Shown: positions 1 to 55,578, numbered from the stretch's first letter. The stretch is DNA of 64,000 bases from an uncultured Alphaproteobacteria bacterium (GCA_905234185.1 CAJOGC010000002.1:103949-167948); one strand, 5' to 3'. Numbers and translations are program-made. The notes: a model not told the origin generated them from the letters alone.

Positions 1-1212
1 GTCCAGGGTGGCGATACAAATATGATTGTTTCTGGGAAATCTGGCAATCAATACATATTTTATTTGCGGGCCGAACCGACTAATTCGTCCGAAATCACCT
101 ATTCCCAGGTAGAGATTATAATGGACGGCAACGCAACTTTGCCTGGTGCGATTGGTACGACCCCGGCACCATCTGGCGGAATGTCATCTGTATTTAAGAA
201 GTCCAGATCTGCTTCCAACACAGTTGGTGTTGATGGTGAAGATTTTGGTTGGATAAAATCTATGAAAATCGACCCATCCGAATTCCGGTTTGATTTGGAT
301 ATATTTGTTCCGAACCCGGACGATTATGTAATTGCCCCGGAACGCGTGTGGCATGATCGCATATTCACATATATTGACTTTGGGGACAAAGTTATCGCGA
401 TGACCCAACGTCCGGTTGTTTCATTACTGGTCGAAGGTGGCGAATCCCCGGTCGGGTTCCGTACCGACGGCCAAGATGGACGTTTGCTGATTGTCGAGGC
501 GGTTGGTGACATGGTTTTGCGCAGTGGTCAACGCATCGTTTGCATTAAAAAACGTGAAAAACCGTTCCTTATCGCCGACACGAACAGTGTTATGGCCCTG
601 GCCGAGGCTAATGTCGCACAATCTATGATGTCGGGTCAATCATTAAACAATATGGCTTATGGCTATGATATGGCGGCGATAAACAGCGCGGGCATAAATT
701 ATACCGGAACGCCGGTTATGGTTGGCAATACAGCCAACACTGCAACCACTGGCTATTACATGCCGGCCGGCTTTATCGCAGGCCAGGCTTATCCACAACC
801 AACACAAAATGTTGGCACATCATCTGGCGCGGTGACAATGATGCCGACCGAACGCGTGACCGCTGGTTCGTATTTGCCCCAATCCAATATTCCAATTATT
901 TCCAGCAACCAAAGCGGTGTTGCCGTTGAATTGAAGTCCGATACTTCGGTAAAGGCGTTGGACGATTACTGGGTTGGATTATTAGCAAAATTTAGTGGTG
1001 AAAATGGCCAAGGATTATTAACCCCATACAAAGACAAAGTGTTCTTTGCGGTTGATGAACAAGGTGTAGGCGATTTGGGTTCCGGCGCAACAACGGCACG
1101 TCTGTATCGTTTGCGTATCGGGCCAATGGCTGATATTGATGCGGCACAAAAATTGTGCGACCAATTGTTAAAATTCAGTGGCGCCAGTTGCAATGTCGTC
1201 AGAATACAGTAA
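1..1212 (+). CDS. virB9: VirB9/TrbG-like type IV secretion outer-membrane core protein, 5'-partial (reading frame is open to the window edge), with a C-terminal SPOR-like extension
   Basis: The central segment VWHDRIFTYIDFGDKVIAMTQRPVVSLLVEGGESPVGFRTDGQDGRLLIVEAVGDMVLRSGQRIVCIKKR matches the VirB9 C-terminal beta domain pattern from memory. The last ~80 aa (YWVGLLAKFSG...LYRLRIGPMADIDAAQKLCDQLLKFSGASCNVVRI) look like a SPOR peptidoglycan-binding domain. A virB10-like gene follows immediately. Confidence 0.5.
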   Translation, partial: VQGGDTNMIVSGKSGNQYIFYLRAEPTNSSEITYSQVEIIMDGNATLPGAIGTTPAPSGGMSSVFKKSRSASNTVGVDGEDFGWIKSMKIDPSEFRFDLDIFVPNPDDYVIAPERVWHDRIFTYIDFGDKVIAMTQRPVVSLLVEGGESPVGFRTDGQDGRLLIVEAVGDMVLRSGQRIVCIKKREKPFLIADTNSVMALAEANVAQSMMSGQSLNNMAYGYDMAAINSAGINYTGTPVMVGNTANTATTGYYMPAGFIAGQAYPQPTQNVGTSSGAVTMMPTERVTAGSYLPQSNIPIISSNQSGVAVELKSDTSVKALDDYWVGLLAKFSGENGQGLLTPYKDKVFFAVDEQGVGDLGSGATTARLYRLRIGPMADIDAAQKLCDQLLKFSGASCNVVRIQ

Positions 1213-1221
1213 TTATTTTGG

Positions 1222-3621
1222 GTGCGGATTAATATGAGTAAACTTGGCGAACAATTTTCAGAACTGCGCAAATCAACACCAAAATATGTCCAGTGGTTAT
1301 TGCTGGCCGCGGCACTTGTTATCGTTTTAATTTTGTTGACTTTGCTTATGACGGGGCCAAAAAATAAAACGGCCCGGTCTGCCCAAAAATCTATGGACGA
1401 AACGCCTATCGAAGTTCGTATGATTACGATAAATGCCGACAACCAAGAAGTTTCTGTTGATAAAATCGATTGGGCCAATGTGATTGTCGGTGAGAAAAAG
1501 AGTACCACGATAACAATCAAAACAAATGCACCGACACGCGTATCTATGACCCAGAACAAGAATATTGTTGGGTTTTCTGCACAAACCACATGTACGGATG
1601 CGACCGTTATAAATGCAAAACTATCATGCAATATATATCTTAAATTCGAACCGACAACCGCCATGTCTCCGGAAACAGTGACATTGTCTGTTTATTGGCG
1701 CGCTGAAAACGACCCCGAAACAATGAATAACACGAAAAAGATTTCTGTCGTTTTGGGTGCCACCGCACCGGTCGTGCGACCTGAACCACAACCAATTGTC
1801 GAACCAGAACCGCTGTTTTCCGACGATTATGACGAACTTGACGATTATGATGAATATGATGACAATGTCGAACCACACCCAACAATTCGTGCGGAAATAG
1901 AATCAATTGCGCCGGCGTTGCCGTTCAATTCCGATATCGTGGAACCCGCACCCGTTGTGGAACGACCATCTGAATCTTGTTCTGATTTTGCCTTTCCGGG
2001 GTATGGTCCAAATGGAAATCAAATTGGCTGGATAAAACCCGAACGCGGCGGATATTATTTTCATCCTTTCTCGGACAAAGATTGTAAAAATGCAACGGGA
2101 ATCTATAACCCGGCAACCGGTGTTATTACCGATATCAGCGGCAATGGAACACGTATCGGAACCGATGCCGAACATATTGGGTATGCGGCCATAAATGATG
2201 GCGCATTGCCGGCACTAAATCCGGCCCCGCGTAGCGCAAGAACCGCATCTAATACCACGGTTTCTTCGACCAATGTTCCTATTGCTGGCATGGGCAAGGT
2301 TATTGTAAAGAAGGAACCAGATGTTGAATTTGCCTCCAGCGGCACAGACACCGTCACAAATACAGTTGCTTACGATCGCACCTTTATATTGCGTCAATAC
2401 AAACCTATTCCGGCGACAATCGTTTCCGATGTTCGTGCCGACCCATCGTTATACAAGCAGGGAAATACACTGCCTGTACGGGCGACGGTTGATCGCAATG
2501 TATATTCCGATAATGGACGCACTGTTATTATCCCGGCGGGGACAATGTTGTTGGGGTATCTGACCGGCACCATGCCCGGACCATATACGGCTATTGGTCG
2601 GATGGAGGTTAATTGGTATCAATTTGTTTTACCAAATGGTGTTGAGTTTAATTTCAGTGGTGCCAATGATCCGTTTTCTGGCGATGCCCAGGGGCGTGTC
2701 GGCGTTCCTGGTCGTGGCAGCACCGATTATTTGGAACAATTTGTTATGCCAATGTTAACGGCAATTGTGCCGGCGGCGGTGAATATGATTGCCCCGGTTG
2801 CCGACAAATTCGTTAATCAAATTGATTTGGACAATAATACAGTTGTACAAAGCGGAACAGTGCGATCGTCTGAATTGGCAAAGAACGAGATTATCACCGC
2901 ATGGAACCAAGTTGCCCAGAAATTATTGGTTGATATGATGGATAACACCGTGCCACCATTTACAATTCCGGCGGGGACCCGTATCACTGTTTATTCACCG
3001 GCTGATTTACAAGTCACGTGTGGCGCCCCAGGTACCAGTAATAAAAAGTGTGCCGTTGCTAAATACAGCGACGCAAAACGCCAATTGTGGAAAAATAGTG
3101 CCGAACCAGATTACTATGACGGTTCATGGGTGGGCCAGGCGCGTTCGTTCAATCTGGAACAATATTGCACAACAGACACTAATAATTTAAGGCGCGCATT
3201 ACCATACAGCGATGTTGGGGCTGAATTACAAAAACTTGGTTATTCATACAGCACGCTTGTTGCGTATTGCCAGGCAAGTAATTACCAGGCGATAAATAAT
3301 GCGCGTCAGGATGCCATTTATCAAAACCAACAAAACCCAAACAACAAAAACAGTGTTGCAAACGCCACCGCCCAGGGGACCAAAACATATAATGAACAGG
3401 TTCTTGGATTGAAATACAATGACGATGGTTCTATTAAGAATCCGTATCAGTCGGAAAAGAAACCAGAATCACAACAACCGACTAATGTCATCACATGTGA
3501 TGATGGTTTGGCACCGGACCAATACGGGTGTTGCACGGGTGAAATATACACAGATATGGGCGAACAGGGTTTCAATTGCTGTCCCCAATCTGGTGGCGAT
3601 TGTTTCCCGCCGATTTTGTGA
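1222..3621 (+). CDS. virB10: VirB10/TrbI-family (DotG-like) type IV secretion protein, 799 aa, with a ~230-aa Cys-rich C-terminal extension
   Basis: An N-terminal TM helix is followed by a Pro-rich acidic linker (PEPQPIVEPEP, DDYDELDDYDEYDD). The C-terminal barrel region carries VIIPAGTMLLGY...WYQFVLPNGVEFNFSGANDPFSGDAQGRVGVPGRGSTDYLEQF...IPAGTRITV, which is typical of the VirB10/TrbI signature. The tail has about 7 Cys in its last 45 aa. A GTG start lies at 1222 and an alternative ATG at 1234. Confidence 0.6.
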   Translation: MRINMSKLGEQFSELRKSTPKYVQWLLLAAALVIVLILLTLLMTGPKNKTARSAQKSMDETPIEVRMITINADNQEVSVDKIDWANVIVGEKKSTTITIKTNAPTRVSMTQNKNIVGFSAQTTCTDATVINAKLSCNIYLKFEPTTAMSPETVTLSVYWRAENDPETMNNTKKISVVLGATAPVVRPEPQPIVEPEPLFSDDYDELDDYDEYDDNVEPHPTIRAEIESIAPALPFNSDIVEPAPVVERPSESCSDFAFPGYGPNGNQIGWIKPERGGYYFHPFSDKDCKNATGIYNPATGVITDISGNGTRIGTDAEHIGYAAINDGALPALNPAPRSARTASNTTVSSTNVPIAGMGKVIVKKEPDVEFASSGTDTVTNTVAYDRTFILRQYKPIPATIVSDVRADPSLYKQGNTLPVRATVDRNVYSDNGRTVIIPAGTMLLGYLTGTMPGPYTAIGRMEVNWYQFVLPNGVEFNFSGANDPFSGDAQGRVGVPGRGSTDYLEQFVMPMLTAIVPAAVNMIAPVADKFVNQIDLDNNTVVQSGTVRSSELAKNEIITAWNQVAQKLLVDMMDNTVPPFTIPAGTRITVYSPADLQVTCGAPGTSNKKCAVAKYSDAKRQLWKNSAEPDYYDGSWVGQARSFNLEQYCTTDTNNLRRALPYSDVGAELQKLGYSYSTLVAYCQASNYQAINNARQDAIYQNQQNPNNKNSVANATAQGTKTYNEQVLGLKYNDDGSIKNPYQSEKKPESQQPTNVITCDDGLAPDQYGCCTGEIYTDMGEQGFNCCPQSGGDCFPPIL

Positions 3622-3644: not shown

Positions 3645-3671
3645 AAAAACCCACATGCGTGGGTTTTTTTT
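3645..3671 (+). terminator. Rho-independent terminator after the virB10-like gene
   Basis: aaaaacccacatgcgtgggttttttttat: a GC stem followed by a T run. Confidence 0.6.
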
Positions 3672-3923
3672 ATCGGAAAAAGAGGTTGAAAATGAACACA
3701 TCTTGAACCATATATGTGTACAACAATACGTGCGTGCTTTTCATGCGCGCATTTTATTTATCGCAAAACAGCATGTTTTTGCGATTCGTACATCAAAAGA
3801 AAAATTATTAAAACGAATCGAAAAACCGATTCGCACTTCAATCAAAAGTTGTAGTGTTTAATATTATTCTTATTAAGCCCTATAACACAATTGTAACCAT
3901 TTTATAAAACAATGGAGAAATAA

Positions 3924-4268
3924 ATGACACAAACACAAACTGCATACACACCCGAAAAATTCCAGAACGCCGAACAACTATGGTTTTGGTTTCTATATTC
4001 TAAATCTGTTCAGAATGACTATACACGCCGGCGCGAAACCGCCACACGCCGAGTATGTGAATTACTTGATGTAGAAGCACTGATAACAAAACTATATCTG
4101 TGCGGCAAAATAACCGATGAACAATTGGTCGTTATGAAAAAGTTTGGCGATCGCCGGCGTGCCCCACATCAATATATCTGGGCTGAAAATCGTGCCGCCG
4201 CTTTATGGCGATGCGCAATGGAAACAATCGAATCAGCCGCACGCGATCGCGGTTGGATTAATAAATAA
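3924..4268 (+). CDS. hypothetical protein (114 aa)
   Basis: Clean ORF with upstream AGGAG-like ggagaaataaATG. I recognise no family. Confidence 0.4.
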   Translation: MTQTQTAYTPEKFQNAEQLWFWFLYSKSVQNDYTRRRETATRRVCELLDVEALITKLYLCGKITDEQLVVMKKFGDRRRAPHQYIWAENRAAALWRCAMETIESAARDRGWINK

Positions 4269-4287: not shown

Positions 4288-4629
4288 ATGATTATCATTG
4301 CATTTTCTGGTAAAACATCGAAATTATTACCACAAATATTCTGCAACCATTTTCGCCATTGTGCACCCATAGTACCCCACGGAAACAAATTGATCATGTA
4401 TCAATTTACCACCAGGAATAATATTGCAACAATCGAATTAAAGAATCGCGATATTGCAATATTGCGCGCACACGGTTGGCAATTTGTCTATATTCCGACC
4501 GATATACAACATGATTTCAATCCCGAGCGCGCATATTCATGTGTCGATTTATCAAAACGCGCCATTGGTATTAATAATCTATTTATACAAACACCATATA
4601 TGCTTTATAAATACATTGCACCACAATAA
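4288..4629 (+). CDS. hypothetical protein (113 aa)
   Basis: ORF tightly following the previous one. I recognise no family. Confidence 0.35.
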   Translation: MIIIAFSGKTSKLLPQIFCNHFRHCAPIVPHGNKLIMYQFTTRNNIATIELKNRDIAILRAHGWQFVYIPTDIQHDFNPERAYSCVDLSKRAIGINNLFIQTPYMLYKYIAPQ

Positions 4630-4654
4630 AAAATGCCCGAACGGGCATTTTTTA
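4628..4654. terminator. bidirectional Rho-independent terminator between convergent genes
   Basis: aaaaaatgcccgaacgggcatttttt. Confidence 0.55.
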
Positions 4655-6843: not shown

Positions 6844-8562
6844 TTATTCAGATAATTTTACGGAATCATCCAAACATGCATAATCATTTTCACGTAATTC
6901 ATTTAACACACTGTGTATTTTTGTATCGGGCATTCCCATATGACGCAACGCCCGACAACCCAATACAGCGGCTGTTTCAATCGTTTCTGGTAATGCATTA
7001 CATGCACCGTACTTACGCAAAGTCTTGCAATCAGCCAGATTACGCGCACGTGCAAATATTTTGACACGCGGCGCAATAGATTTGACAGTCAACAATGCAT
7101 CTTTGGCGGTTTCCGCATTATCCAGCGCGACAATCACCGCCGCTGTTTTACGCGGATGCAAACCAAAATTGCGCAACACATCGGCATTTTTACAATTACC
7201 GAATACAACATTATAACCCTTTTCACGGCCACGCACGATTGCGTTTACATCCATATCAATCGCAACATATGGGACACAGTTTTGTTCCATTAATTTAGAA
7301 ACAATCTGACCGACACGTCCAAATCCCAATACAATAACTTTTGGTGCGATTTCCAAACCAGATCTGTCCAGACTACGTGGACGATATGCGGCAAAAATCC
7401 ACCCACGGCGGCGCAGGAAATCGTACATCGCCAACAACATTGGCGTTGTCATAATAGACAGTATTATGGTTGCCGTTAAAACTTCGGAACTGGTTGCCGG
7501 GATTGCGTTTATTCCCGCAGTTTTCATCGTCTGCAACATCAACAACCCAAATTCGCCCCCCTGGGACAGCATCAACGCCATAAACACCGCGTCCGGCACC
7601 AACATGCCACGCACGCGCGACACCATGAACAGCGCCATGAATTTTATAAATACCAAACCGCCCAAACCAACCAAGATATATTTCCATTTCATTAACAACA
7701 ACGGCACATTTAAGCCCATGCCAAGCGCGATAAAGAAAAATGCCAGGAATAACATCGAATACGGACTTATTTCCGCACTGATTTGATGGCGATAAATTGT
7801 TTCCGACATTAACATACCGGCCAAGAACGCGCCCAGGCCAACCGGCAACCCCATCATATCTAAAACCGTCGCCCAAATAACGATATTCAGCATAACGGTT
7901 AACAATAATGCTTCGCGACTTTTCAATTTCACAACACGTTTTAACAGCGGATTCAATATAAACCGACCAACAATTACAACCGATATAATCAACAGCAACG
8001 ATAACACCGCAACATCGATTGCCGTCGCACCAAAATTAAATGATTTGCCTGCAAACACCGGCAACATGGCTAAAATAGGAATCGACAATAAATCTTGGAA
8101 CAATAAAATAGAAAACGATTGATTTCCGACATTAGTATTTAATTCGTTTCTGTCTGACAATAATTGTAAATCTTCGGATGTACTGGACATCGCCAAAATC
8201 AGCGCAACCATAATACACCCCAACACCGACCAACGCGTAATACCAAACAATATCGGAAATAACATTACCGCAACGGTCAATACCTGGGACGCACCAAGCC
8301 CAAATATCGTTTTGCGCATAGACCACAGGCGGCTCATATTAATTTCCAAACCAATATTGAACCACAAAAACAAAATGCCCATATCACCCAGTAATTGCCA
8401 GGTTTGATTCATTTCAAAAAGGTTTAATCCAAACGGCCCCGACAAAATACCCGCTGCTAAAAACGCAACCAATGCCCCAATACGTGCGGCGCGCAGGAAG
8501 CATACCAACACAAACAAAATCCCAAAAAATATTAAAAACGATAATGGCATATCTCTCTCCAA
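6844..8562 (-). CDS. Kef-type (CPA2) K+/H+ antiporter with C-terminal TrkA-N (NAD-binding) domain
   Basis: Polytopic N-terminal transporter region plus a C-terminal VIVLGFGRVGQIVSKLM Rossmann motif. Confidence 0.75.
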   Translation of the reverse strand: MERDMPLSFLIFFGILFVLVCFLRAARIGALVAFLAAGILSGPFGLNLFEMNQTWQLLGDMGILFLWFNIGLEINMSRLWSMRKTIFGLGASQVLTVAVMLFPILFGITRWSVLGCIMVALILAMSSTSEDLQLLSDRNELNTNVGNQSFSILLFQDLLSIPILAMLPVFAGKSFNFGATAIDVAVLSLLLIISVVIVGRFILNPLLKRVVKLKSREALLLTVMLNIVIWATVLDMMGLPVGLGAFLAGMLMSETIYRHQISAEISPYSMLFLAFFFIALGMGLNVPLLLMKWKYILVGLGGLVFIKFMALFMVSRVRGMLVPDAVFMALMLSQGGEFGLLMLQTMKTAGINAIPATSSEVLTATIILSIMTTPMLLAMYDFLRRRGWIFAAYRPRSLDRSGLEIAPKVIVLGFGRVGQIVSKLMEQNCVPYVAIDMDVNAIVRGREKGYNVVFGNCKNADVLRNFGLHPRKTAAVIVALDNAETAKDALLTVKSIAPRVKIFARARNLADCKTLRKYGACNALPETIETAAVLGCRALRHMGMPDTKIHSVLNELRENDYACLDDSVKLSE

Positions 8563-11278: not shown

Positions 11279-12961
11279 ATGAAACAAAAGTCATACATTA
11301 TTGACGATAAACAACTGATGTCCGAATGGGACTGGGATGCCAATGTTGGTTTAGATCCGAAAACATTAACCCGTGGATCAAATAAAAAGGCATGGTGGGT
11401 ATGTTCGGTATGTGGGCATAAATGGTGTGCCGATATACATCATAGAGCCGTAAGAAAACAAGGTTGTTTAAACTGCCGATATGTATATAAAAAACAACTT
11501 GCTTCTATTTTGTCTGAAACACATCCAAAAGTCCTTAAATACTGGGATTTTTCAAAAAATAAATTGATAACCCCCGAAATTGTCAGCCAGAATTCGCGTA
11601 AAAGCGTTTGGTGGCATTGTCCAGATTGTGGCCATGAATGGGAAGAAAAAATAAAAAATCAGGTTAAAAAATTAGTTTGGTGCCCACATTGTAAGAAGGG
11701 AATTAAAGATTTGGCTTCTGTGGAACCAGAACTTGCAAAAGAATGGCATAAAACAAAAAATACTGATGCCCCAGAACATATTTCGTATGCTTCTAACAAA
11801 TATGCATGGTGGAAATGCCAAAAGTGTGGTTACGAATGGAAAGCCAGAATAGCCAACAGGTCAATATTGAAACGGGGGTGTCCTTGTTGTTCTGGTGGTG
11901 CGGTTGTCGTCGGAATAAACGATTTAAAAACAAAGTTTCCGCATATAGCAAAAGAATGGCACCCTACAAAAAACGGTGAACTTTTACCAGAACAAGTCAC
12001 TTCTGGTACAAGAAAGAAAGTTTGGTGGCAATGCCCACTGGGACACGAATACCAAGCAACGGTAGGACACAGGACATCACAAAATGGCACAGGGTGTCCA
12101 ATATGTTATTCAGGACGTCAAACATCATTCGCTGAACAGGCTGTATTCTTTTATGTAAAACAATTATATCCCGACGCACTAAGCAGGTATAAGGCAGACT
12201 TTTTGGGAAAATTTGAATTGGATATTTATATCCCATCAATCAAATATGCGATAGAATACGATGGTGAAGCATGGCATAAAGCGAATAAATTAGAACGCGA
12301 AAAACGAAAGTATCAATTGTGCAAACAGAACGGCATCACATTACTCAGATTACGAGAAAAGGAACCAGAACATGATGCTGAAGTGGCAGATGATATAATT
12401 TGTGTGAAAAATCTATACGAACACAGAAATCTTGAAATGGTATTAAGACGGTTATTGGTGAAATTGAACCCGCAATCGGTAATGCCTGACAACTTTGTTA
12501 ATTTGGCCAGGGATAATCATAAAATCTTGGAATATAAAAAATCGGCCATATCAGAATCATTGATGTCCGTCAGACCAGATATTGCGATGGAATGGCATCC
12601 AACAAAAAATGGTAACCTGTTACCAAGTATGTTTAAAGCAGGTTCTGAACATAAAGTATGGTGGATTTGTCCAAAGTGTGCCACCGAATATCAAACAAGT
12701 ATTGCTCATAGAACAGATAAAAAGGTTCCAACAGGATGCCCAAAGTGTGGCAAAGAGCGAAGTGACTTAGCGAAAAGTGTCGCTGTAAATATGTTAGATT
12801 TGAAAACGAAAAAAGTATTAAAAACATTCGTTTCTGTATCAGATGCATCAAGGCAAATGAAAATCAATTTATCTAACATATGTATGGCTTGCAAAGGCCA
12901 ACGCAACCAAGCTGGTGGGTACGGTTGGGAATATAATTTAAAAATATGCAAAAGAAAATAA
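11279..12961 (+). CDS. zinc-ribbon-repeat / PD-(D/E)xK (DUF559-like) / NUMOD1 composite protein (homing-endonuclease-like), 560 aa
   Basis: Five WW-x-C-x2-C-x-H-x-W...C-x2-C treble-clef repeats. The central block FELDIYIPSIKYAIEYDGEAWH...GITLLRLRE matches the DUF559/Vsr-like nuclease core. The C-terminal block VSVSDASRQMKINLSNICMACKGQRNQAGGYGWEY matches the NUMOD1 pattern. Confidence 0.6.
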   Translation: MKQKSYIIDDKQLMSEWDWDANVGLDPKTLTRGSNKKAWWVCSVCGHKWCADIHHRAVRKQGCLNCRYVYKKQLASILSETHPKVLKYWDFSKNKLITPEIVSQNSRKSVWWHCPDCGHEWEEKIKNQVKKLVWCPHCKKGIKDLASVEPELAKEWHKTKNTDAPEHISYASNKYAWWKCQKCGYEWKARIANRSILKRGCPCCSGGAVVVGINDLKTKFPHIAKEWHPTKNGELLPEQVTSGTRKKVWWQCPLGHEYQATVGHRTSQNGTGCPICYSGRQTSFAEQAVFFYVKQLYPDALSRYKADFLGKFELDIYIPSIKYAIEYDGEAWHKANKLEREKRKYQLCKQNGITLLRLREKEPEHDAEVADDIICVKNLYEHRNLEMVLRRLLVKLNPQSVMPDNFVNLARDNHKILEYKKSAISESLMSVRPDIAMEWHPTKNGNLLPSMFKAGSEHKVWWICPKCATEYQTSIAHRTDKKVPTGCPKCGKERSDLAKSVAVNMLDLKTKKVLKTFVSVSDASRQMKINLSNICMACKGQRNQAGGYGWEYNLKICKRK

Positions 12962-14003: not shown

Positions 14004-14384
14004 TTAAAATGTTGATGTCCGATATGCAAAGTCGCGAACGCGATTGTCTTCGTCAAACTTTACAATAATGGTCAATGTGCGTTGGTTGCTTGATGCTTTG
14101 GCACTTTCCGCGCCCGCTATCAATAACCACACACCGGAACTGGATTTAGAAACATTGCTGGACACGCGGTCATACACCCATGTTTCGCGACGTTTATCGT
14201 CGGTTGTCACCATGTTTGGCGACCCCAGAACCTCAACCACTTCGGCGGATGTCATACCAACCTTTATTTCACGTTGTGCCTTTGCAACCGTCATTTGTTC
14301 TTCGCGAATCGGGTCCGTTCCCGTTGTGCACGCGGTTAATAGTGGTGTGGTTGCTAAACAAATTGCCAATAATACTTTTTTCAT
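14004..14384 (-). CDS. BamE/SmpA-OmlA-like outer-membrane lipoprotein
   Basis: Lipobox LLTAC, a KVGMTSAEVVEVLGSPN motif typical of BamE, ~126 aa. Confidence 0.5.
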   Translation of the reverse strand: MKKVLLAICLATTPLLTACTTGTDPIREEQMTVAKAQREIKVGMTSAEVVEVLGSPNMVTTDDKRRETWVYDRVSSNVSKSSSGVWLLIAGAESAKASSNQRTLTIIVKFDEDNRVRDFAYRTSTF

Positions 14385-19364: not shown

Positions 19365-19444
19365 AAGAACACCTTTCCTTATGGACTTTTATCATAGGAA
19401 AAATATCGTTGCGATGCAATCAAATAAAATCCTATACTGGAACT

Positions 19445-21376
19445 ATGAATGAAACATTGGAAAATCAACGGCCTAATCTGTTTTTGTGGGTGCCATTTGT
19501 AATGGCGGCGGGGGCGGCGTTATATTTTTCGTGTTCGCATGAACCGAAACTGCCGTTTTGTTGGTTGTTTGCTATTATTACATTTTGCGCCGCGGCGTTT
19601 TTGCGCACGCCAATCATTATTCGCGGAATATTACTTTTTGTTTTTGGTTTTTGTTATGCGAACGCTTACACAAATATGCTTGATACACCAATTATGCCAC
19701 GCGACATGCACGATATAAGTATTACTGGTCGCATTACGGCAATTGACCATACACCCGACAAAGCCAGAATTTTTATTCGTGTGCCAAACCCAGTCCTTAA
19801 TATAAAAGCGAATGGCGATTCAATTGTTCGTGTTTCTGTTGAACTGGATACTGTTCCGAAACCAGGCGACATAATATCAACAACCGCGACACTGTTCACG
19901 CCAACCCCACCAGACATATATGGCGGGTTCGACTTTGCACGATGGGCATATTTCAACGGAATTACCGCGACGGGATATGCGGACAATATAACAATATCAT
20001 CGAACGGCACAACAAATAATATTCGTGATTGGTTGCACAATAAATCAGATTCCATATTAGTGGACAGTTTAGTACTGGGGTATAAAAACACTTTACCAAA
20101 GGCGGAACGCGCAACTTGGGTGTCCGCCGGTGTCGGACACATTTGGTCAATAAGTGGTTTTCATATGACATTAATCGGTGGTTGGCTGTTTGCGATTTTC
20201 TATTTTATATTTCGTTGCATACCGTCCGTTGTTCGTCGCATACCGGCACGACACATTGCGGCAATATTCGCATGGATTGGCGTTATGATTTATTTATTCG
20301 TATCAGGCATGGGGGTTGCAACAATTCGCGCCTTTTTAATGGCAACGTTATTAATGGTCGCCGCGATTATGGGACGGTCCGCTTTTTCATTACGCAATGT
20401 ATGCTTGGTGTTTTGTTTAATATTTTTGATAAACCCATATTATGTGATGACCGCCGGTTTTCAATTATCGTTTTCCGCAATATTCGGATTGGTATGGTTT
20501 TGGACCGTGGTTAACCCAAAACTGCCTGAAAATAGAATATTGCGCACATTGTGCACCGCTGTTTTGACAGCGACAATCGCATCACTTTTTACTGCACCAT
20601 TTGTCGCATTGCATTTTTATTCGGTACCATTATACAGCATTATTGGCAACCTGGTCTTGTTACCAATATTTTCATTTGTAATAATGCCGCTGGTAATAAT
20701 TGGATCACTGCTTGCATTATTTAATGTTTATTTTCCATTACATATCGCGGATTATGCTTACCATTGGGCGCTGGACATTGCGAATCACATATCACATTTG
20801 CCGTTTGCAACAATGACACCGGCACATGTTTCCAACACTGCAATTTGTTTTATCGTTTTTGGCATGATGTGCATCGTTTTTGTTCGCCCGGTCCGGCTAA
20901 AGATTAATTATATTCTAGGTGCAATTTTTATCTTAATCGGCACAATTATTGTTGCCGCAACCCCACGACCTGTTTTCTTTGCGACACCGGATCACGAACT
21001 GGTTGGTGTTGTACAAAATGGTGAAATATTATTTAACAAATCACGCGCATCAAACCACTATTTTGCATTTGATATATGGAAACATTTAACCAACAGCGAT
21101 ATAAATACACAAAACAATCGTGCAAAACATAATCGCGGATTGTATATCTTTGAAACGCCGAAATATAAAATTGCATATATACAGAAATTCACAGCATTAC
21201 AAAATAACATCGCTAAACTTTGCGACGATGAAAATATAGATTTTATAGTTTCATATCTGGAAATAAATGGCGACCGTTGTGCAAACAAGATTTTGCATGG
21301 TGGTTTTACAATTTATGAAAACGGGAAAATTATTTATGTACCGACATCTCGTCGTTGGAATAATCTGCACCAATAA
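19445..21376 (+). CDS. comEC: ComEC/Rec2-family DNA internalization membrane protein
   Basis: DUF4131-like N-terminal region plus a competence domain (WVSAGVGHIWSISGFHMTLIGG). Polytopic. The start is placed at the ATG at 19445; the track begins at a TTG at 19409. Confidence 0.7.
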   Translation: MNETLENQRPNLFLWVPFVMAAGAALYFSCSHEPKLPFCWLFAIITFCAAAFLRTPIIIRGILLFVFGFCYANAYTNMLDTPIMPRDMHDISITGRITAIDHTPDKARIFIRVPNPVLNIKANGDSIVRVSVELDTVPKPGDIISTTATLFTPTPPDIYGGFDFARWAYFNGITATGYADNITISSNGTTNNIRDWLHNKSDSILVDSLVLGYKNTLPKAERATWVSAGVGHIWSISGFHMTLIGGWLFAIFYFIFRCIPSVVRRIPARHIAAIFAWIGVMIYLFVSGMGVATIRAFLMATLLMVAAIMGRSAFSLRNVCLVFCLIFLINPYYVMTAGFQLSFSAIFGLVWFWTVVNPKLPENRILRTLCTAVLTATIASLFTAPFVALHFYSVPLYSIIGNLVLLPIFSFVIMPLVIIGSLLALFNVYFPLHIADYAYHWALDIANHISHLPFATMTPAHVSNTAICFIVFGMMCIVFVRPVRLKINYILGAIFILIGTIIVAATPRPVFFATPDHELVGVVQNGEILFNKSRASNHYFAFDIWKHLTNSDINTQNNRAKHNRGLYIFETPKYKIAYIQKFTALQNNIAKLCDDENIDFIVSYLEINGDRCANKILHGGFTIYENGKIIYVPTSRRWNNLHQ

Positions 21377-39429: not shown

Positions 39430-39983
39430 CCTGCCCCCATTTTGTGGGGCGGGACAGAGTCGGCTTATGAACGCAGTGAATTAGCGACTCTTGGGTGGGG
39501 GCATTATTTTCCCCATCGCGACACAAAAAATTCATTAAAATCCAAATGTTCGTTTATACACATGTGCAATGTATCAACAACCGTTTTCATACCTTGTTTC
39601 GTTAATTCTGCATTTGCAACACGAATAACTTTATAGCCCTGTGATTCTATAAACTCTGTGCGCTTGTTGTCGTATTCAATATTTTCTGCGTGTTGGTTGC
39701 CATCAAGTTCAATAACCAATTTCAATTCATTACACACAAAATCAACATAATATGGACCAAACGGTTGTTGCCGGCGGAACTTTACCCCCAGTTTGTTATT
39801 ATTAATTTGATACCAGAATTTGCGTTCTGGGTCAGACATATTTTTACGCAGGTTTTTTGCACGAATAATGTTTGCTGGGTGATTTGTCATAATACAATTT
39901 TACCCCCACCCAAGATTTTCATCAACATTAAAAATGTTGTGAAAATCTGTCCCGCCCCACACGCACAATGTGCGCGGGGGCAG
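39430..39983. mobile_element. compact TIR-bounded element carrying a single DUF559 endonuclease gene
   Basis: Left TIR cctgccccc...gtggggcgggacagagtcggcttatgaacgcagtgaattagcgactcttgggtggggg (39430-39502). The right TIR (39902-39983) is its reverse complement with a variable internal palindrome. The ORF fills the interior. Confidence 0.65.
39504..39890 (-). CDS. DUF559 (Vsr-like PD-(D/E)xK) endonuclease-domain protein, 128 aa
   Basis: PERKFWYQI...FGPYYVDFVCNELKLVIELDGNQH...DNKRTEFIESQGYKVIRV is the canonical DUF559 core. Confidence 0.7.
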   Translation of the reverse strand: MTNHPANIIRAKNLRKNMSDPERKFWYQINNNKLGVKFRRQQPFGPYYVDFVCNELKLVIELDGNQHAENIEYDNKRTEFIESQGYKVIRVANAELTKQGMKTVVDTLHMCINEHLDFNEFFVSRWGK

Positions 39984-44145: not shown

Positions 44146-44652
44146 ATGAACAAACCATTAAAAAACTATTTACAAAGAATAATAAAAAACGAATATGTTT
44201 CTGTATATCATGACTATGATGGTCAAAAAACTACATATTCTATTCCATATAACGCATCGCTTGCACCACGATCGGTAAGGTTGACATTGATTCGCGCGCT
44301 GGGGTTGGACTATGACGATGATTTTGATGAAAACAATCCGCAAGACATAGACAAAATGTCATACAACCTGATTGCGGACGAAACCCCATTGTTTTCGTTA
44401 ACATCCGATCATTATATAAACAATCGTGGCACTCTTATGACCCACTATATTTTGGACTTTGATGGTCAGGTACTTACCGAAAAATCCTATAAGTCGGATA
44501 AATTAAGCGGGAAAAATCCGCTAATCCAATTAATGCGCAAATGTTCCGACAAAATAATAGCCCAGGAACAGGCCGCCCAAAAATACAAAATGGAAAAAAT
44601 GTTTGTATCAACAAATATATTTACACAGAATGTGCAACACGACAGAATGTGA
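44146..44652 (+). CDS. hypothetical small acidic protein, paralog of gene 43277-43693
   Basis: See above. Acidic stretch DYDDDFDENNPQDIDK. Confidence 0.45.
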   Translation: MNKPLKNYLQRIIKNEYVSVYHDYDGQKTTYSIPYNASLAPRSVRLTLIRALGLDYDDDFDENNPQDIDKMSYNLIADETPLFSLTSDHYINNRGTLMTHYILDFDGQVLTEKSYKSDKLSGKNPLIQLMRKCSDKIIAQEQAAQKYKMEKMFVSTNIFTQNVQHDRM

Positions 44653-45352
44653 CCCCATATACCGCAACTGCGCCCGCATCCACCAACACACGTCGCAATT
44701 CGTTAAATGTCGCACCCGTTGTCATAACATCATCAACCAATAAAATTTTCTTGCCCTGGATTTTATCGGGTTTACACACGGTAAAAACATTACGAATATT
44801 TCGTGCGCGTTGGGCACTGGTTTTATGTCCCATATTTTCACGATATTCGCGCGACACAGAATCTAAATCCATTTTTACACCAAACACATGTGCAATTGGG
44901 CGCGCCAGTAATGTCGCCTGGTTATATCCACGTTGGAACAATCTGCGCCGTGCAAGTGGAACCGGCATAACTATATCAGGTTCTATATCGACATCACGCA
45001 ACGCCCAAATCATCGCACGCGACATAAAACGTGCATACTGAATGTGTCCCGCATGTTTATATGGCAACATCGCCGCACGTGATGCATCATCATATACACA
45101 TGCCGACCGAATTAAATCCAATTCACATTTTCCAGACGCGCATGTTGGACACATCATATTTGGCCCCATATCAAAACTGGACGCAAACGGGAAACCACAA
45201 TGAATACATTTTGCACCATCAATCCAATTAAACGATGCCCAACAATCAACACATAATTCACCATGCGTTTCGACATGCGCATTACACAACGGACACGATG
45301 GTGGAAAAATAAAATCTATTAAATCCTGCAAATACCGGCGCCCAGATTTCAT
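44621..45352 (-). CDS. comF: ComF-family phosphoribosyltransferase-domain protein
   Basis: N-terminal double zinc ribbon (CPLC...CVDC...CIHCG) and C-terminal PRTase motif ILLVDDVMTTGAT. Confidence 0.75.
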   Translation of the reverse strand: MKSGRRYLQDLIDFIFPPSCPLCNAHVETHGELCVDCWASFNWIDGAKCIHCGFPFASSFDMGPNMMCPTCASGKCELDLIRSACVYDDASRAAMLPYKHAGHIQYARFMSRAMIWALRDVDIEPDIVMPVPLARRRLFQRGYNQATLLARPIAHVFGVKMDLDSVSREYRENMGHKTSAQRARNIRNVFTVCKPDKIQGKKILLVDDVMTTGATFNELRRVLVDAGAVAVYGVTFCRVAHSV

Positions 45353-45359
45353 CGCGCAA

Positions 45360-46661
45360 TCACCAAGACATATTTTTATATGTTTTTCTGTTAACACTGT
45401 CGCCGAACATATTGCGTTGCTGTTGTGTCATTGATTCAAACTGCTCATTCGAAATAATCCGCAATACAAACGCATCTTCACTGCGTGACGACAACACCGG
45501 CAGCACCCGATGTTCTGCGACACCCGTATCGCGTAATACTTGTTCGATAATTGCCAATCTGCGTGCCGCCAACTTGCGGGCATCGGCATTGTTTGTCACA
45601 CTTTCTGGAATTGCAACCTGAATTGCGCGTTTCGGATTACTGACCACAATGGATGCATATTCGGTTAACAAAGTATAATTATCGCGTGACAACGCAGAGT
45701 CTTCATTACGGAAATGTATTTTTATTTCCAACGGACGAATACCACCCGATTCAGACAAATCACGAACGGCGGTAAATCCTTCTATATTTCTGGACATGTC
45801 ACTTGCCACATCGAAACGATCATCTATTTGGAAAGTTGAAAGATGTTTGTTTTCCGACAAAAATGTCTTACGAAATGCGCGACGCAATTCGGATGGTGAC
45901 ATTTTTGTCATATCATTACGAACCGAACTTATCGTCGGCGAAGTGTTTTTTTCGACGCTGCGCACAATAACATCGTTATTGTCCATCGGCACAACCAGGC
46001 GCGACAACTTTACCGGTGTACTCTGTACATTTTCTTTGCGCGATTCTTGGGCAATCGTATTATCATTTACAACCGGCATCATGGGTTCGGCAACAATCTG
46101 GGACGGACGCGCAATGATACTTTCATCGGCCCTGCGTTGTAATTCGGCAATCCGTGCAATTTGATTATCAAATTCACTTAAATTCCCATGCACAGCACCA
46201 GATTCATCATCACGCACCGCAACGGTGCGAACCGACATATTCATATCAAGGTTTTCTTCGGGTAAATCAAATTCTGGTGTTAACACCGAAAACTCTTCGG
46301 GGCTTGGCATACGCAACGGCATATCACTTTTTACCCACAAATCAGAACTGGGGCGATGCGGAATCAACACATCGGCAACATTTGCGATTTTTTCGCCCGC
46401 ATCAACAGATGGGCGCGTTGTACTTGCCGTGCGTGACGCAATATTTCGTGTATTTGTTTTTTGTGACGCCACGGCGGTCCGCCTTGTCACGGGGGCAACA
46501 GTGACGTTTGGCGCAACAGAAACGGGACCGTATCCCGATTCCCCAAACGCAGCACGTGCCGACACAGCAGTCGAAGCAACATTAACAACCGGTAAACGGG
46601 CATCCCCCCATGCGGGAATTACCACAAAAACCGCCAACAAAGACGCAGTAATTCGATGCAT
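45360..46661 (-). CDS. secreted hypothetical protein (433 aa) with possibly degenerate OmpA-like C-terminus
   Basis: Signal peptide, low-complexity Ser/Thr/Val-rich N-terminal half, and a conserved-looking C-terminal ~110 aa. Confidence 0.4.
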   Translation of the reverse strand: MHRITASLLAVFVVIPAWGDARLPVVNVASTAVSARAAFGESGYGPVSVAPNVTVAPVTRRTAVASQKTNTRNIASRTASTTRPSVDAGEKIANVADVLIPHRPSSDLWVKSDMPLRMPSPEEFSVLTPEFDLPEENLDMNMSVRTVAVRDDESGAVHGNLSEFDNQIARIAELQRRADESIIARPSQIVAEPMMPVVNDNTIAQESRKENVQSTPVKLSRLVVPMDNNDVIVRSVEKNTSPTISSVRNDMTKMSPSELRRAFRKTFLSENKHLSTFQIDDRFDVASDMSRNIEGFTAVRDLSESGGIRPLEIKIHFRNEDSALSRDNYTLLTEYASIVVSNPKRAIQVAIPESVTNNADARKLAARRLAIIEQVLRDTGVAEHRVLPVLSSRSEDAFVLRIISNEQFESMTQQQRNMFGDSVNRKTYKNMSW

Positions 46662-54217: not shown

Positions 54218-55504
54218 TTATTTTTTTATAACTTTCCAGAGTTTCTGCAGGTTTGCCCACGTCACTTCCAGGTTCTTTTTTGTCGTCTGATAGAATTTAT
54301 CCGATATTTTTACATTGAACAATGTTTCGATAAGTGCGGGAATAGATGTCATAAACATAGCGATAAATATCCCCATAAGGATGATTGTCACAATGCTGTC
54401 ATTACGCATCATCAATCCATCCATAAGAATTGTCGAATCGTTCTGTGCAAGTGCCGTCACTAATGCATTCGCCCCGCCCCAATCACCAAACATCGCGTCC
54501 AAGAACATTATTGCAAATGTCACAAATATACCAGTCAATGCCAGTCCCAATGTCCCCTTGACCACATCATCGATAATCGATTCGATATTTTTTCCACCAC
54601 CCGGCAATATTTTCCACCCATTAAATATCCATGCCAATAAGTTTAATGGCAACATTATCAAATCCAGTGATAAATTTATGAATATTTCCAAGAAAAAGAT
54701 GGGTATCGGCAATAATGCCGCAAAAAACAAAACCAGTATTAGTAATCCGCTAAAAAATATTAATACATTCGGGAAAATCGGAATATCCAGAATAATTTTG
54801 TGCATATACTTTTCATTAAATGCCATATTCAGCATCGTCCATCCCACCGCCATCCCAAGCCCGGTCATTTGATGAACAACCCCTAATTCACATGCCAGAT
54901 TATGACGCAACTTTGGTGAAAATGCCCCGCGCGACGCCGCATCCACAGACACAGATGCCGGATCCGCAATTGCGGTCGCAATGATACAATTATTAAATTC
55001 ATCATCGCCAACAACGATATGATTCATTGACATGCCTACATTAAATATCGGTTCTATTGCTATATCATTTATCATTCGTGGCAATGGCGCGACCAATAGC
55101 CCACAAACAACCGCTAATTTTATAACACGCACGCCAAAATCACCGGACAATGACCATGGTTCAATATTTTTTGCATTCATATAATTTGAAAGTAATTGCC
55201 ACGCAAACCAAATTGCCAAAAATGCCGCTGCAAACGGGATAATTACCGCACCAATCGCACTGTACACCCCCGGCAAAATATCAGACATCGTTCCAATTAC
55301 ATCCGAAAACATCTGGCACGACCAACATGTCGAAAAGAAATTAAGCGCGTCACTCATGTTAACCGGAACGGCCGTACGGTATATTGCAAACCCGGCTAAA
55401 ACGCCAACCCCTGCGATTGCGCCGACGACCCATGGTGCCACCGCCCCCGCCGCAAATGGCAAGAACGATAAAAACACTATCCAAAACTTTCTAAACCTAT
55501 TCAT
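54218..55504 (-). CDS. polytopic membrane protein, paralog A of the five-gene membrane-protein cluster (VirB6/TrbL-like, tentative)
   Basis: Signal-like N-terminus and multiple TM helices. Shared paralog motif LPLNLLAWIFNGW. Transcribed divergently from paralogs B-E. Confidence 0.45.
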   Translation of the reverse strand: MNRFRKFWIVFLSFLPFAAGAVAPWVVGAIAGVGVLAGFAIYRTAVPVNMSDALNFFSTCWSCQMFSDVIGTMSDILPGVYSAIGAVIIPFAAAFLAIWFAWQLLSNYMNAKNIEPWSLSGDFGVRVIKLAVVCGLLVAPLPRMINDIAIEPIFNVGMSMNHIVVGDDEFNNCIIATAIADPASVSVDAASRGAFSPKLRHNLACELGVVHQMTGLGMAVGWTMLNMAFNEKYMHKIILDIPIFPNVLIFFSGLLILVLFFAALLPIPIFFLEIFINLSLDLIMLPLNLLAWIFNGWKILPGGGKNIESIIDDVVKGTLGLALTGIFVTFAIMFLDAMFGDWGGANALVTALAQNDSTILMDGLMMRNDSIVTIILMGIFIAMFMTSIPALIETLFNVKISDKFYQTTKKNLEVTWANLQKLWKVIKK

Positions 55505-55516
55505 ATCATAATAAGT

Positions 55517-55544
55517 ATATCACATTTTGTCCCAAATGTGATAT
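55517..55544. promoter_or_regulatory. perfect 11-bp inverted repeat ATATCACATTT-N6-AAATGTGATAT in the divergent promoter region, overlapping a TATAAT -10 element
   Basis: Centered in the 74-bp intergenic region between paralog A (-) and paralogs B-E (+). The TATAAT hexamer lies at 55542-55547. Confidence 0.55.
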
Positions 55545-55578
55545 AATTGAAAAGATAAAAATGTAAACACGAGAGAGA

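Follow-up and report, generated by a model that had tools for sequence, protein, structure and literature searches.

A chromosomal virB8-virB9-virB10 operon of gut Alphaproteobacteria: probable core of a divergent type IV apparatus with a SPOR-like domain on VirB9 and a cysteine-rich tail on VirB10

The stretch of DNA analyzed here, referred to as the window, comprises 64,000 nucleotides from an uncultured Alphaproteobacteria bacterium (GCA_905234185.1 CAJOGC010000002.1:103949-167948). Positions 1-3621 of its plus strand carry two open reading frames (ORFs) related to type IV secretion system (T4SS) genes, the 3' part of virB9 followed by virB10. An identical VirB10 protein is encoded on a 183-kb ENA scaffold, and we read the upstream gene order there: rpoB-rplLJAK-nusG-secE on the minus strand, a tRNA-Trp gene located between secE and virB8 (7431-7504 of the flanking locus L001), and then virB8, virB9, and virB10. 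The virB8 product is a 226-residue protein that matches PF04335 with an E value of 7e-15. A first-pass annotation of the window had proposed that virB8 and virB7 be sought upstream of its left edge; virB8 is indeed present, but the scaffold region before the triad contains no virB7-like ORF, just tRNA-Trp and secE. The full operon consists of virB8-virB9-virB10 followed by a terminator, and positions 1-3621 of the window represent its distal two-thirds.

The virB9 portion (1-1212, plus strand) runs off the left edge of the window and encodes the last 403 of 513 amino acids, which comprise the CagX domains, a linker of ~115 residues, and a SPOR-like C-terminal domain (916-1209, plus strand; residues 416-513 of the full-length protein). 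The fragment present in the window scored 42.9 bits against the CagX profile PF03524 (E 6e-11; cut-off 34.2 bits), while the full-length protein reached 80.1 bits (E 2.6e-22) against the same cut-off, with the CagX region spanning residues 51-294 and a SPOR match in addition. PF03524 was matched by 50/50 VirB9 homologues, and the beta-sandwich fold of the VirB9 N-terminal domain was recovered. At 55.5 bits, the protein did not reach the NCBIfam equivalog models for VirB9 (TIGR02781; cut-off 217.7 bits) or TrbG, and we therefore regard it as a divergent member of the family and not as an equivalog. Its homologues stem from many independent assemblies, share 72-100% identity, and are mostly ~500-535 residues long, with a few shorter ones.

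The SPOR profile PF05036 scored 23.2 bits in the window fragment and 22.8 bits in full-length VirB9 (cut-off 21 bits), in a match limited to profile positions 41-76 of 76. The first-pass annotation had described the upstream ORF as a VirB9/CagX protein ending in a SPOR-type repeat, and both profiles are matched above their cut-offs. PF05036 was matched at E <= 0.01 by 50/50 VirB9 homologues (best E 8.8e-7). An AlphaFold2 model predicts the beta-alpha-beta-beta-alpha-beta order at a low predicted local distance difference test (pLDDT) score, and strand 3 contains the YRxRxGP motif with its Arg residue retained. In these respects, i.e., a C-terminal domain of ~100 residues above the Pfam threshold, the order of its secondary structure elements, and the strand 3 motif, the domain resembles those of FtsN, DamX, DedD, and RlpA; unlike in these proteins, it resides on a secretion-ring protein and not on a division or cell-wall protein. 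Alignment with hhalign to the SPOR domains of Escherichia coli FtsN, DamX, DedD, and RlpA gave a probability of 46% (P 2e-4) over the second half of the domain alone, and a PDB profile search with the whole of VirB9 returned TrwF alone and no SPOR entry. Judged from these profile matches, the terminal domain of VirB9 is SPOR-like and likely adopts the SPOR fold; it may also bind denuded glycan strands. A fusion of this kind had been said not to be described for VirB9, and we found none in the searchable literature or in domain libraries. More distant lineages keep the VirB9 architecture at 485-496 residues, and the database entry of the 485-residue form lists SPOR faintly. Separate from the two Cys residues of the SPOR-like domain, VirB9 possesses an invariant Cys (Cys291 of the full-length protein; window 541-543; RIVCIKK) in its C-terminal domain. 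Agrobacterium VirB9 forms a disulfide with VirB7 via a Cys residue of this same domain, and a partner of Cys291 is therefore possible.

The virB10 gene (1234-3621, plus strand) encodes 795 amino acids when read from the ATG codon, or 799 from a GTG codon at 1222. Since the N-termini of its homologues align to the ATG at 1234, we use the 795-residue form, which is also that of the database entry. The Pfam TrbI profile PF03743 was matched with an E value of 3e-17 (63.5 bits; cut-off 35) at residues 392-595 of the 799-residue form, covering profile positions 4-185 of 188, and all four VirB10 signature strings quoted in the first-pass annotation occur in the translation. Among NCBIfam models, the VirB10 domain ranked first (1.2e-16) and ComB10 second (1.4e-12); the T4SS_VirB10 equivalog NF038091 was not reached (60.8 bits against a cut-off of 220). 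In the PDB profile search, CagY was the best match (1.7e-5), followed by ComB10 (4e-3), and TrwE is also a relative. We found more than 890 homologues of VirB10, and the best 120 are without exception full length (770-850 residues), with ~99% coverage and 52-73% identity; the C-terminal extension of VirB10 is consequently no pseudogene artifact. All 14 Cys residues of VirB10 are conserved, 13 of them invariantly and one at 90%.

The protein begins with a short cytoplasmic N-terminus and a membrane helix, both well conserved (0.72-0.83 column identity). The anchor itself (1294-1353, plus strand; residues 21-40) is a hydrophobic stretch, WLLLAAALVIVLILLTLLMT, that we read by eye and that shows 83% column identity. 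It is followed by a possible immunoglobulin (Ig)-like domain of the ASH/choice-of-anchor-D type (1459-1701, plus strand) with a conserved Cys pair, suggested by weak, sub-threshold matches to Cep192_D4 (0.014), ASH (0.047), and choice_anch_D (9e-5) and by PF15780 records for two VirB10 homologues. Canonical VirB10 proteins lack such a domain, and matches to plasmid VirB10s do not cover this region. A linker rich in Pro and acidic residues (P/E/D; residues 180-245) leads to a conserved middle domain (1966-2223, plus strand; residues 245-330) that has a column identity of 0.63-0.89, an invariant Cys pair (C249 and C284), and no family match in Pfam or NCBIfam. The barrel matched by PF03743, together with its antenna region (2395-3006, plus strand; residues 392-595 of the 799-residue form), belongs to the best-conserved part of the protein (residues 381-595; 0.91-0.97). 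Column identity in the antenna region is 0.94-0.97, and the pair of hydrophobic and amphipathic antenna helices can be read from the sequence at residues 500-570. A tblastn search matched 465 plasmids; the listed matches were essentially to the barrel alone (query residues ~356-600; 24-31% identity), and none of the 465 covers 80% or more of the protein.

Past the barrel, VirB10 continues for ~200 residues (596-795). The extension noted in the first-pass annotation is thus real, but its dimensions had been overstated: the protein has 795 and not 799 residues, the tail ~200 and not ~230, and its end six and not seven Cys residues. Ten Cys residues are present in the tail, six of them within the last 41 positions. 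The first part of the extension (3007-3495, plus strand) contains the invariant residues C596, C606, C645, and C679 and a confidently predicted helical core, and gives way to a variable, Q/N/P/E-rich linker; the remainder is a terminal six-Cys module (3496-3618, plus strand) with the pattern C-x10-CC-x14-CC-x6-C, ending in CFPPIL. Over its ~42 residues, the module shows ~93% column identity although the whole proteins are 52-73% identical. In 75 genomes, codon positions 1 and 2 of the module are identical at 0.889 compared with 0.506 at position 3, and every Cys codon alternates between TGC and TGT; the module is therefore under clear and strong purifying selection. AlphaFold2 modeling of the tail alone (75 sequences) yielded a pLDDT of 75 overall, 92-96 in the helical core, and 79-86 in the terminal Cys region, which is predicted to form a small beta-hairpin. 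The predicted tail helices are Q/N-rich. On reading the tail, we noticed no long hydrophobic or amphipathic stretch suited to crossing the outer membrane, although no formal scan was made.

Neither the tail nor other proteins carrying the module matched Pfam, NCBIfam, or PHROGs, and neither tail nor module was found in domain libraries or the searchable literature. A phmmer search with the tail against 1.84 billion representative proteins produced 201 matches, many of them to the last ~42 residues alone. Wherever the Cys pattern located a module, its last copy was without exception positioned 4-20 (usually 4-10) residues from the C-terminus. At least three architectures have it in common: VirB10-like proteins; proteins of 600-850 residues that combine a coiled-coil domain in the cytoplasm and a long P/E/A-rich linker with a single membrane helix; and small proteins of 60-330 residues that bear one to three module copies and either a signal peptide or one membrane anchor. 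The carriers come from gut-metagenome contigs of apparently related Alphaproteobacteria, and one small carrier is named as a protein of an Alphaproteobacteria metagenome-assembled genome (MAG). The window contains no further copy, nor do other genomes within ~10 kb of their virB10 genes. We consider the module a mobile domain and a new 42-residue, six-Cys domain family common to several classes of putative envelope protein. Two of the small carriers end a conserved cluster beside ftsQ (L095 4166-11106; L090 1318-6336) that consists of 108- and 449-residue genes, a MacB/FtsX permease, an ABC ATPase, and several unknown genes; small module proteins may be substrates or partners of this MacB/FtsX-type transporter. 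One of the long carriers adjoins gcrA on contig L098, which looks alphaproteobacterial. On the same contig (3582-7948), near the module-bearing bitopic protein, we noted a prepilin peptidase gene (PF01478) within a run of same-strand unknown genes (289, 296, 560, and 105 residues), and this run may represent a divergent pilus system.

The paired-Cys spacing of the module and the hairpin predicted between its CC pairs are reminiscent of the stapled beta-hairpins of granulin, and three granulin entries are among the weak Foldseek matches. This likeness is a lead only: the Foldseek matches are not significant (E 4-6 over 19-33 residues), the module has no Pfam granulin match, and it contains six Cys residues versus 12 in granulin. 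As to where the tail resides, the first-pass annotation had stated that the C-terminus of VirB10 forms the outer-membrane channel. This conflates the C-terminal domain with the extreme C-terminus, since two antenna helices within the C-terminal domain of VirB10 build the pore (PMC6536674). Because the pore is internal in this way, because no long hydrophobic stretch was noticed in the tail, and because the periplasm is the default location of the other module carriers, which are Sec-exported or tethered to the inner membrane, we assign the VirB10 tail to the periplasm by default as well.

An intrinsic terminator follows virB10 (3647-3673, plus strand), as had been proposed: it consists of the hairpin AAAAACCCAC-ATGC-GTGGGTTTTTTTT and a T8 run, was read by eye, and is not listed by the scan tool. 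A hairpin with a T run follows virB10 in 72/75 related loci. Next in the window are two small ORFs, s114 (3924-4268, plus strand; 114 residues without a membrane segment) and s113 (4288-4629, plus strand; 113 residues), and then yidC, lspA, and a gene for a kefB-type transporter on the opposite strand. The scan did list a terminator-like hairpin after s113 (4627-4654), where this gene converges with yidC. Since the hairpin and T run after virB10 are present in 72 of the 75 loci, s114-s113 should form a separate transcription unit. The two genes had been called unrelated to the T4SS genes. They do follow directly, yet they are not simply unrelated: s114 was found 3' of virB10 in 75/80 species-level loci (median identity 70%) and s113 in 74/80 (median 52%), and both stay with virB10 even at loci where the yidC synteny breaks. 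They are not present in the more distant lineages examined and have no relative in the PDB, Pfam, NCBIfam, or PHROG collections. Their link to the VirB system is one of synteny within the genus.

These counts refer to a survey of one genome per species, in which the 80 species-level loci are the best 80 of at least 274 genomes encoding a VirB10 relative. All of the at least 274 are species-level genomes of gut Alphaproteobacteria smaller than 1 Mb. The best 80 are assigned to Candidatus Enterousia or are MAGs labeled "uncultured Alphaproteobacteria/Rickettsiales" from rumen, human, chicken, horse, and mouse gut, and one of them is a closed chromosome of 958,618 bp (OZ007020.1). Gene order is near-invariant across the 80 loci, with housekeeping neighbors, and in nearly all genomes the triad adjoins the conserved tRNA-Trp/secE/nusG/rplK cluster. 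No relaxase, coupling protein, integrase, or conjugation gene was found in the flanks of these loci, which therefore have the makings of neither a conjugative plasmid nor an integrative and conjugative element. Median identities to the window genome over the 80 loci are 73% for VirB9, 53% for VirB10, and 47% for VirB8, compared with 74% for RecR, 72% for KsgA, and 63% for YidC; the conservation of VirB9 equals that of RecR and KsgA. The triad is again isolated in three more distant lineages, once with quite different neighbors (clpB and an ABC transporter), and it therefore is an ancient stand-alone operon. The operon is best explained as chromosomal and vertically inherited in Candidatus Enterousia and its relatives (order Rs-D84).

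Further T4SS components were sought by phmmer, with VirB1-B11 and VirD4 of plasmid pAtS4a as queries and, as targets, every ORF encoded in the window, at the 80 genome loci, and at 14 additional loci. VirB8, VirB9, and VirB10 alone were matched in the window and the ~95 related loci (~2 Mb, nearly all of it one genomic neighborhood). The absence of virB11 and virD4 next to virB10, already remarked on in the first-pass annotation, holds throughout: at all ~90 loci across the clade, a terminator and then other genes follow directly, in the window the small genes and yidC. Past the right end of the window lie rplU, rpmA, and large unknown proteins, and nothing related to T4SS. The first-pass annotation had concluded that the T4SS genes are dispersed, but no other T4SS gene was found anywhere in the sequence covered. 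Two of these large proteins (L085/L086 1078-8435, ~2-9 kb past the right end) comprise 1714 residues, with a faint Flg_new match, and 685 residues; they are encoded beside rplU-rpmA and belong to no clear family.

The first-pass annotation had also placed a VirB6-like array ~50 kb away. Five adjacent genes for multi-pass membrane proteins of 403-478 residues with Lys-rich tails are located at 54218-60765, one on the minus and four on the plus strand, but their VirB6-like identity found no support in any homology test. No Pfam match was obtained even at an E value of 10, and none in NCBIfam or the PDB; hhalign against a VirB6 protein gave a probability of 0.4%; and the best 120 homologues are unnamed or "hypothetical", none of them with PF04610 (TrbL/VirB6) and one with the unrelated PF02535. 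These homologues, retrieved with the gene at 56814-58025, seem to stem from gut MAGs of the same type. Within the array, relatedness was detected for a single pair of genes, those at 54218-55504 and 56814-58025 (E 3e-9). The window does contain a comEC gene (19409-21376; Competence and DUF4131 domains) and a comFC-type gene (44621-45397; double zinc ribbon and phosphoribosyltransferase). The retention of these two genes in a very small genome, together with a triad not followed by virB11 or virD4, suggests possible DNA uptake of the ComB type.

Compared with the canonical VirB7-VirB9-VirB10 core (pKM101 TraN/O/F, R388 TrwH/F/E, and Xanthomonas citri VirB7/9/10), the operon described here has no virB7, virB11, or virD4 nearby; VirB9 has 513 residues with a SPOR-like domain at its C-terminus; and VirB10 has 795 residues with the possible Ig-like domain, the extra middle domain, and the ~200-residue Cys-rich tail. 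Its barrel is 24-31% identical to those of plasmid VirB10s and scores far under the NCBIfam equivalog cut-offs. The H. pylori ComB system lacks VirB11 and VirD4, and its comB6-10 operon ends with B8-B9-B10. The contiguous triad at the end of an operon, the missing VirB11/VirD4, the ComEC and ComF proteins encoded in the genome, and the ComB10 matches of VirB10 in NCBIfam and PDB searches are all points of resemblance; unlike in ComB, neither comB6 nor comB7 is present upstream, and ComB2, ComB3, and ComB4 were not found. To our knowledge, ComB9 and ComB10 possess neither a SPOR domain nor a Cys tail. In the rvh systems of Rickettsiales, virB8-9-10 continues into virB11-virD4, whereas the triad described here ends in a terminator, the membrane-protein array is without TrbL/VirB6 homology, and no duplicated virB8 or virB9 was seen. 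Shared with rvh are the alphaproteobacterial host, the chromosomal location of T4SS genes in reduced genomes, and the label "uncultured Rickettsiales" of some relatives. The rvh genes are scattered in islands, and VirB1 and VirB5 are missing (bioRxiv 10.1101/2025.08.29.673095). The H. pylori Cag proteins CagX and CagY are likewise VirB9 and VirB10 homologues enlarged by extra domains, and it is CagY that gave the best PDB match. The expansion of CagY is located N-terminal to the barrel and consists of long tandem repeats, whereas the addition reported here is C-terminal, unrepeated in VirB10, and common to unrelated proteins. CagY has Cys-containing repeats that are thought to be surface-exposed.

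With a probability of about 0.65, we interpret the operon as encoding a core complex that spans the envelope and belongs to a very divergent type IV apparatus of the VirB type (P-type) with lineage-specific additions. The additions extend a secretion machine of known kind and do not make it a new one. VirB10 would sit in the inner membrane with its N-terminal helix as anchor, would cross the periplasm via the possible Ig-like domain, the Pro/acidic linker, and the conserved middle domain, and would form the outer-membrane pore through its barrel and antenna helices jointly with the C-terminal domain of VirB9. The ~115-residue linker and the SPOR-like domain of VirB9 would tether the ring to peptidoglycan, and this tether may substitute for the VirB7 lipoprotein and for VirB1, neither of which is encoded beside the triad. 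The VirB10 tail would be a soluble, Cys-stabilized periplasmic appendage ending in the six-Cys module, presumably with one tail per subunit by analogy with the 14-fold VirB10 rings of solved core complexes. The module itself would most likely give its carriers a common means of docking or cross-linking, either in the periplasm or where the outer membrane faces it.

Several observations weigh against this interpretation. Neither the 64-kb window nor the ~20 kb beyond nor the ~95 related loci yielded a homologue of VirB4, VirB11, VirD4, VirB2, VirB3, or VirB6, and a complete secretion machine is therefore an assumption. The SPOR assignment draws on the second half of the domain, and by manual comparison strand 1 reads VAVELKS, with E in place of the Q conserved in the xVQxGS/A motif of the four E. 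coli SPOR domains. The AlphaFold2 model of VirB9 is weak overall (pLDDT 47), since no available homologue is less than 72% identical. Disulfide formation in the tail is assumed, and the cysteines could bind metal instead; the absence of respiratory chains reported for the Rs-D84 lineage (PMC12306168) raises the question of how an oxidizing periplasm would be maintained.

As an alternative, a ComB-like apparatus without VirB11/VirD4 might import DNA across the outer membrane to ComEC/ComF, mainly as a nucleotide source. The ~90 loci without virB11 or virD4 after virB10, the presence of ComEC and ComFC-type genes in the window, and the rank of ComB10 as second-best NCBIfam and additional PDB match all speak for such an uptake system, as does the report that the lineage lacks nucleotide biosynthesis and that type IV pili are known only for another lineage (PMC12306168). 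ComB, however, needs ComB4 (VirB4), ComB2, ComB3, and ComB6, none of which we found; VirB11 and VirD4 could be encoded elsewhere in the genome; ComEC/ComF are widespread in bacteria not known as competent; some pilus system may exist, given the prepilin peptidase near a module-bearing gene on L098; and the VirB10 model outscores that of ComB10. We consider DNA uptake of this type unlikely, if attractive as an idea. A VirB8/9/10 complex re-purposed as a scaffold or channel that bridges the envelope, serving something other than type IV secretion and lacking any type IV ATPase, would fit the isolated, terminator-bounded operon in every lineage examined (one with different neighbors), the lack of any other detected T4SS gene in ~2 Mb of related sequence, and the unusual extra domains that anchor or dock. 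That lack says little, however, because the sequence sampled derives almost entirely from one and the same genomic neighborhood. In addition, VirB10 shows good conservation of its cytoplasmic N-terminus and its membrane helix, the parts that contact ATPases in known systems. We know of no precedent for VirB8/9/10 kept without a type IV ATPase and judge this reading very unlikely. More broadly, and on a rather speculative note, the triad could be a lineage-specific envelope conduit without VirB11/VirD4, either for ComB-like uptake or re-purposed, through which the obligately partner-dependent Rs-D84 bacteria would obtain DNA or metabolites from neighboring cells, with the module as a clade-wide docking domain wiring VirB10 and the tethered and small periplasmic proteins into a SPOR-anchored network; we rate this combination as unlikely.

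With regard to the tail, a surface-exposed, disulfide-rich adhesin or contact element, as suggested in the first-pass annotation, seems doubtful to us. The tail does follow the outer-membrane-associated barrel, the repeats of CagY offer a parallel, and small module proteins adjoin a MacB-type ABC transporter, a family able to expel periplasmic proteins; moreover, contact with partner cells is presumably a necessity for these bacteria (PMC12306168). Yet the pore is built from internal antenna helices and not from the C-terminus (PMC6536674), the tail helices are Q/N-rich with no outer-membrane-crossing stretch noticed on reading (no formal scan), the module also ends proteins that are tethered to the inner membrane or carry plain Sec signals and are periplasmic by default, and each subunit of what is presumably a multimeric ring would have to pass its own ~200-residue tail through the membrane. 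An origin of the extensions from a frameshift, fusion, or assembly error, with a SPOR match by chance, has nothing in its favor and is already refuted: the 120 top VirB10 homologues are all full length, most top VirB9 homologues measure ~500-535 residues, many independent assemblies are represented, the Cys residues are invariant, the module is under purifying selection, and the SPOR match recurs in 50/50 homologues. Its probability is negligible.

Members of Rs-D84/Enterousia are common in the rumen as well as in the guts of humans and animals, and are believed to live at the expense of partner cells; their genomes of <1 Mb lack amino-acid, nucleotide, and lipid synthesis pathways, and obligate dependence on a partner is presumed (PMC12306168). 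Their interaction machinery has so far not been described, and the same study makes no mention of a type IV system (PMC12306168). In the searchable literature on secretion systems of RF32 or Rs-D84 and on Enterousia, we found no description of the system reported here. Conserved to the degree of housekeeping genes, the triad is a candidate for the partner-interaction machinery. For T4SS biology, the locus would add a VirB9 ring protein fused to a SPOR-type domain and a C-terminal, Cys-stabilized VirB10 appendage, and the six-Cys family, a candidate docking or cross-linking unit, could enter domain databases.

Elsewhere in the window, positions 11279-12961 encode a 560-residue protein with repeated DUF4379 zinc-ribbon-type domains, whose synteny does not extend to most relatives. 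Two further genes, one for a BamE-like lipoprotein (14004-14384) and one of the DUF559 endonuclease-like kind (39504-39890), look to be ordinary genes of the housekeeping or mobile-element type.

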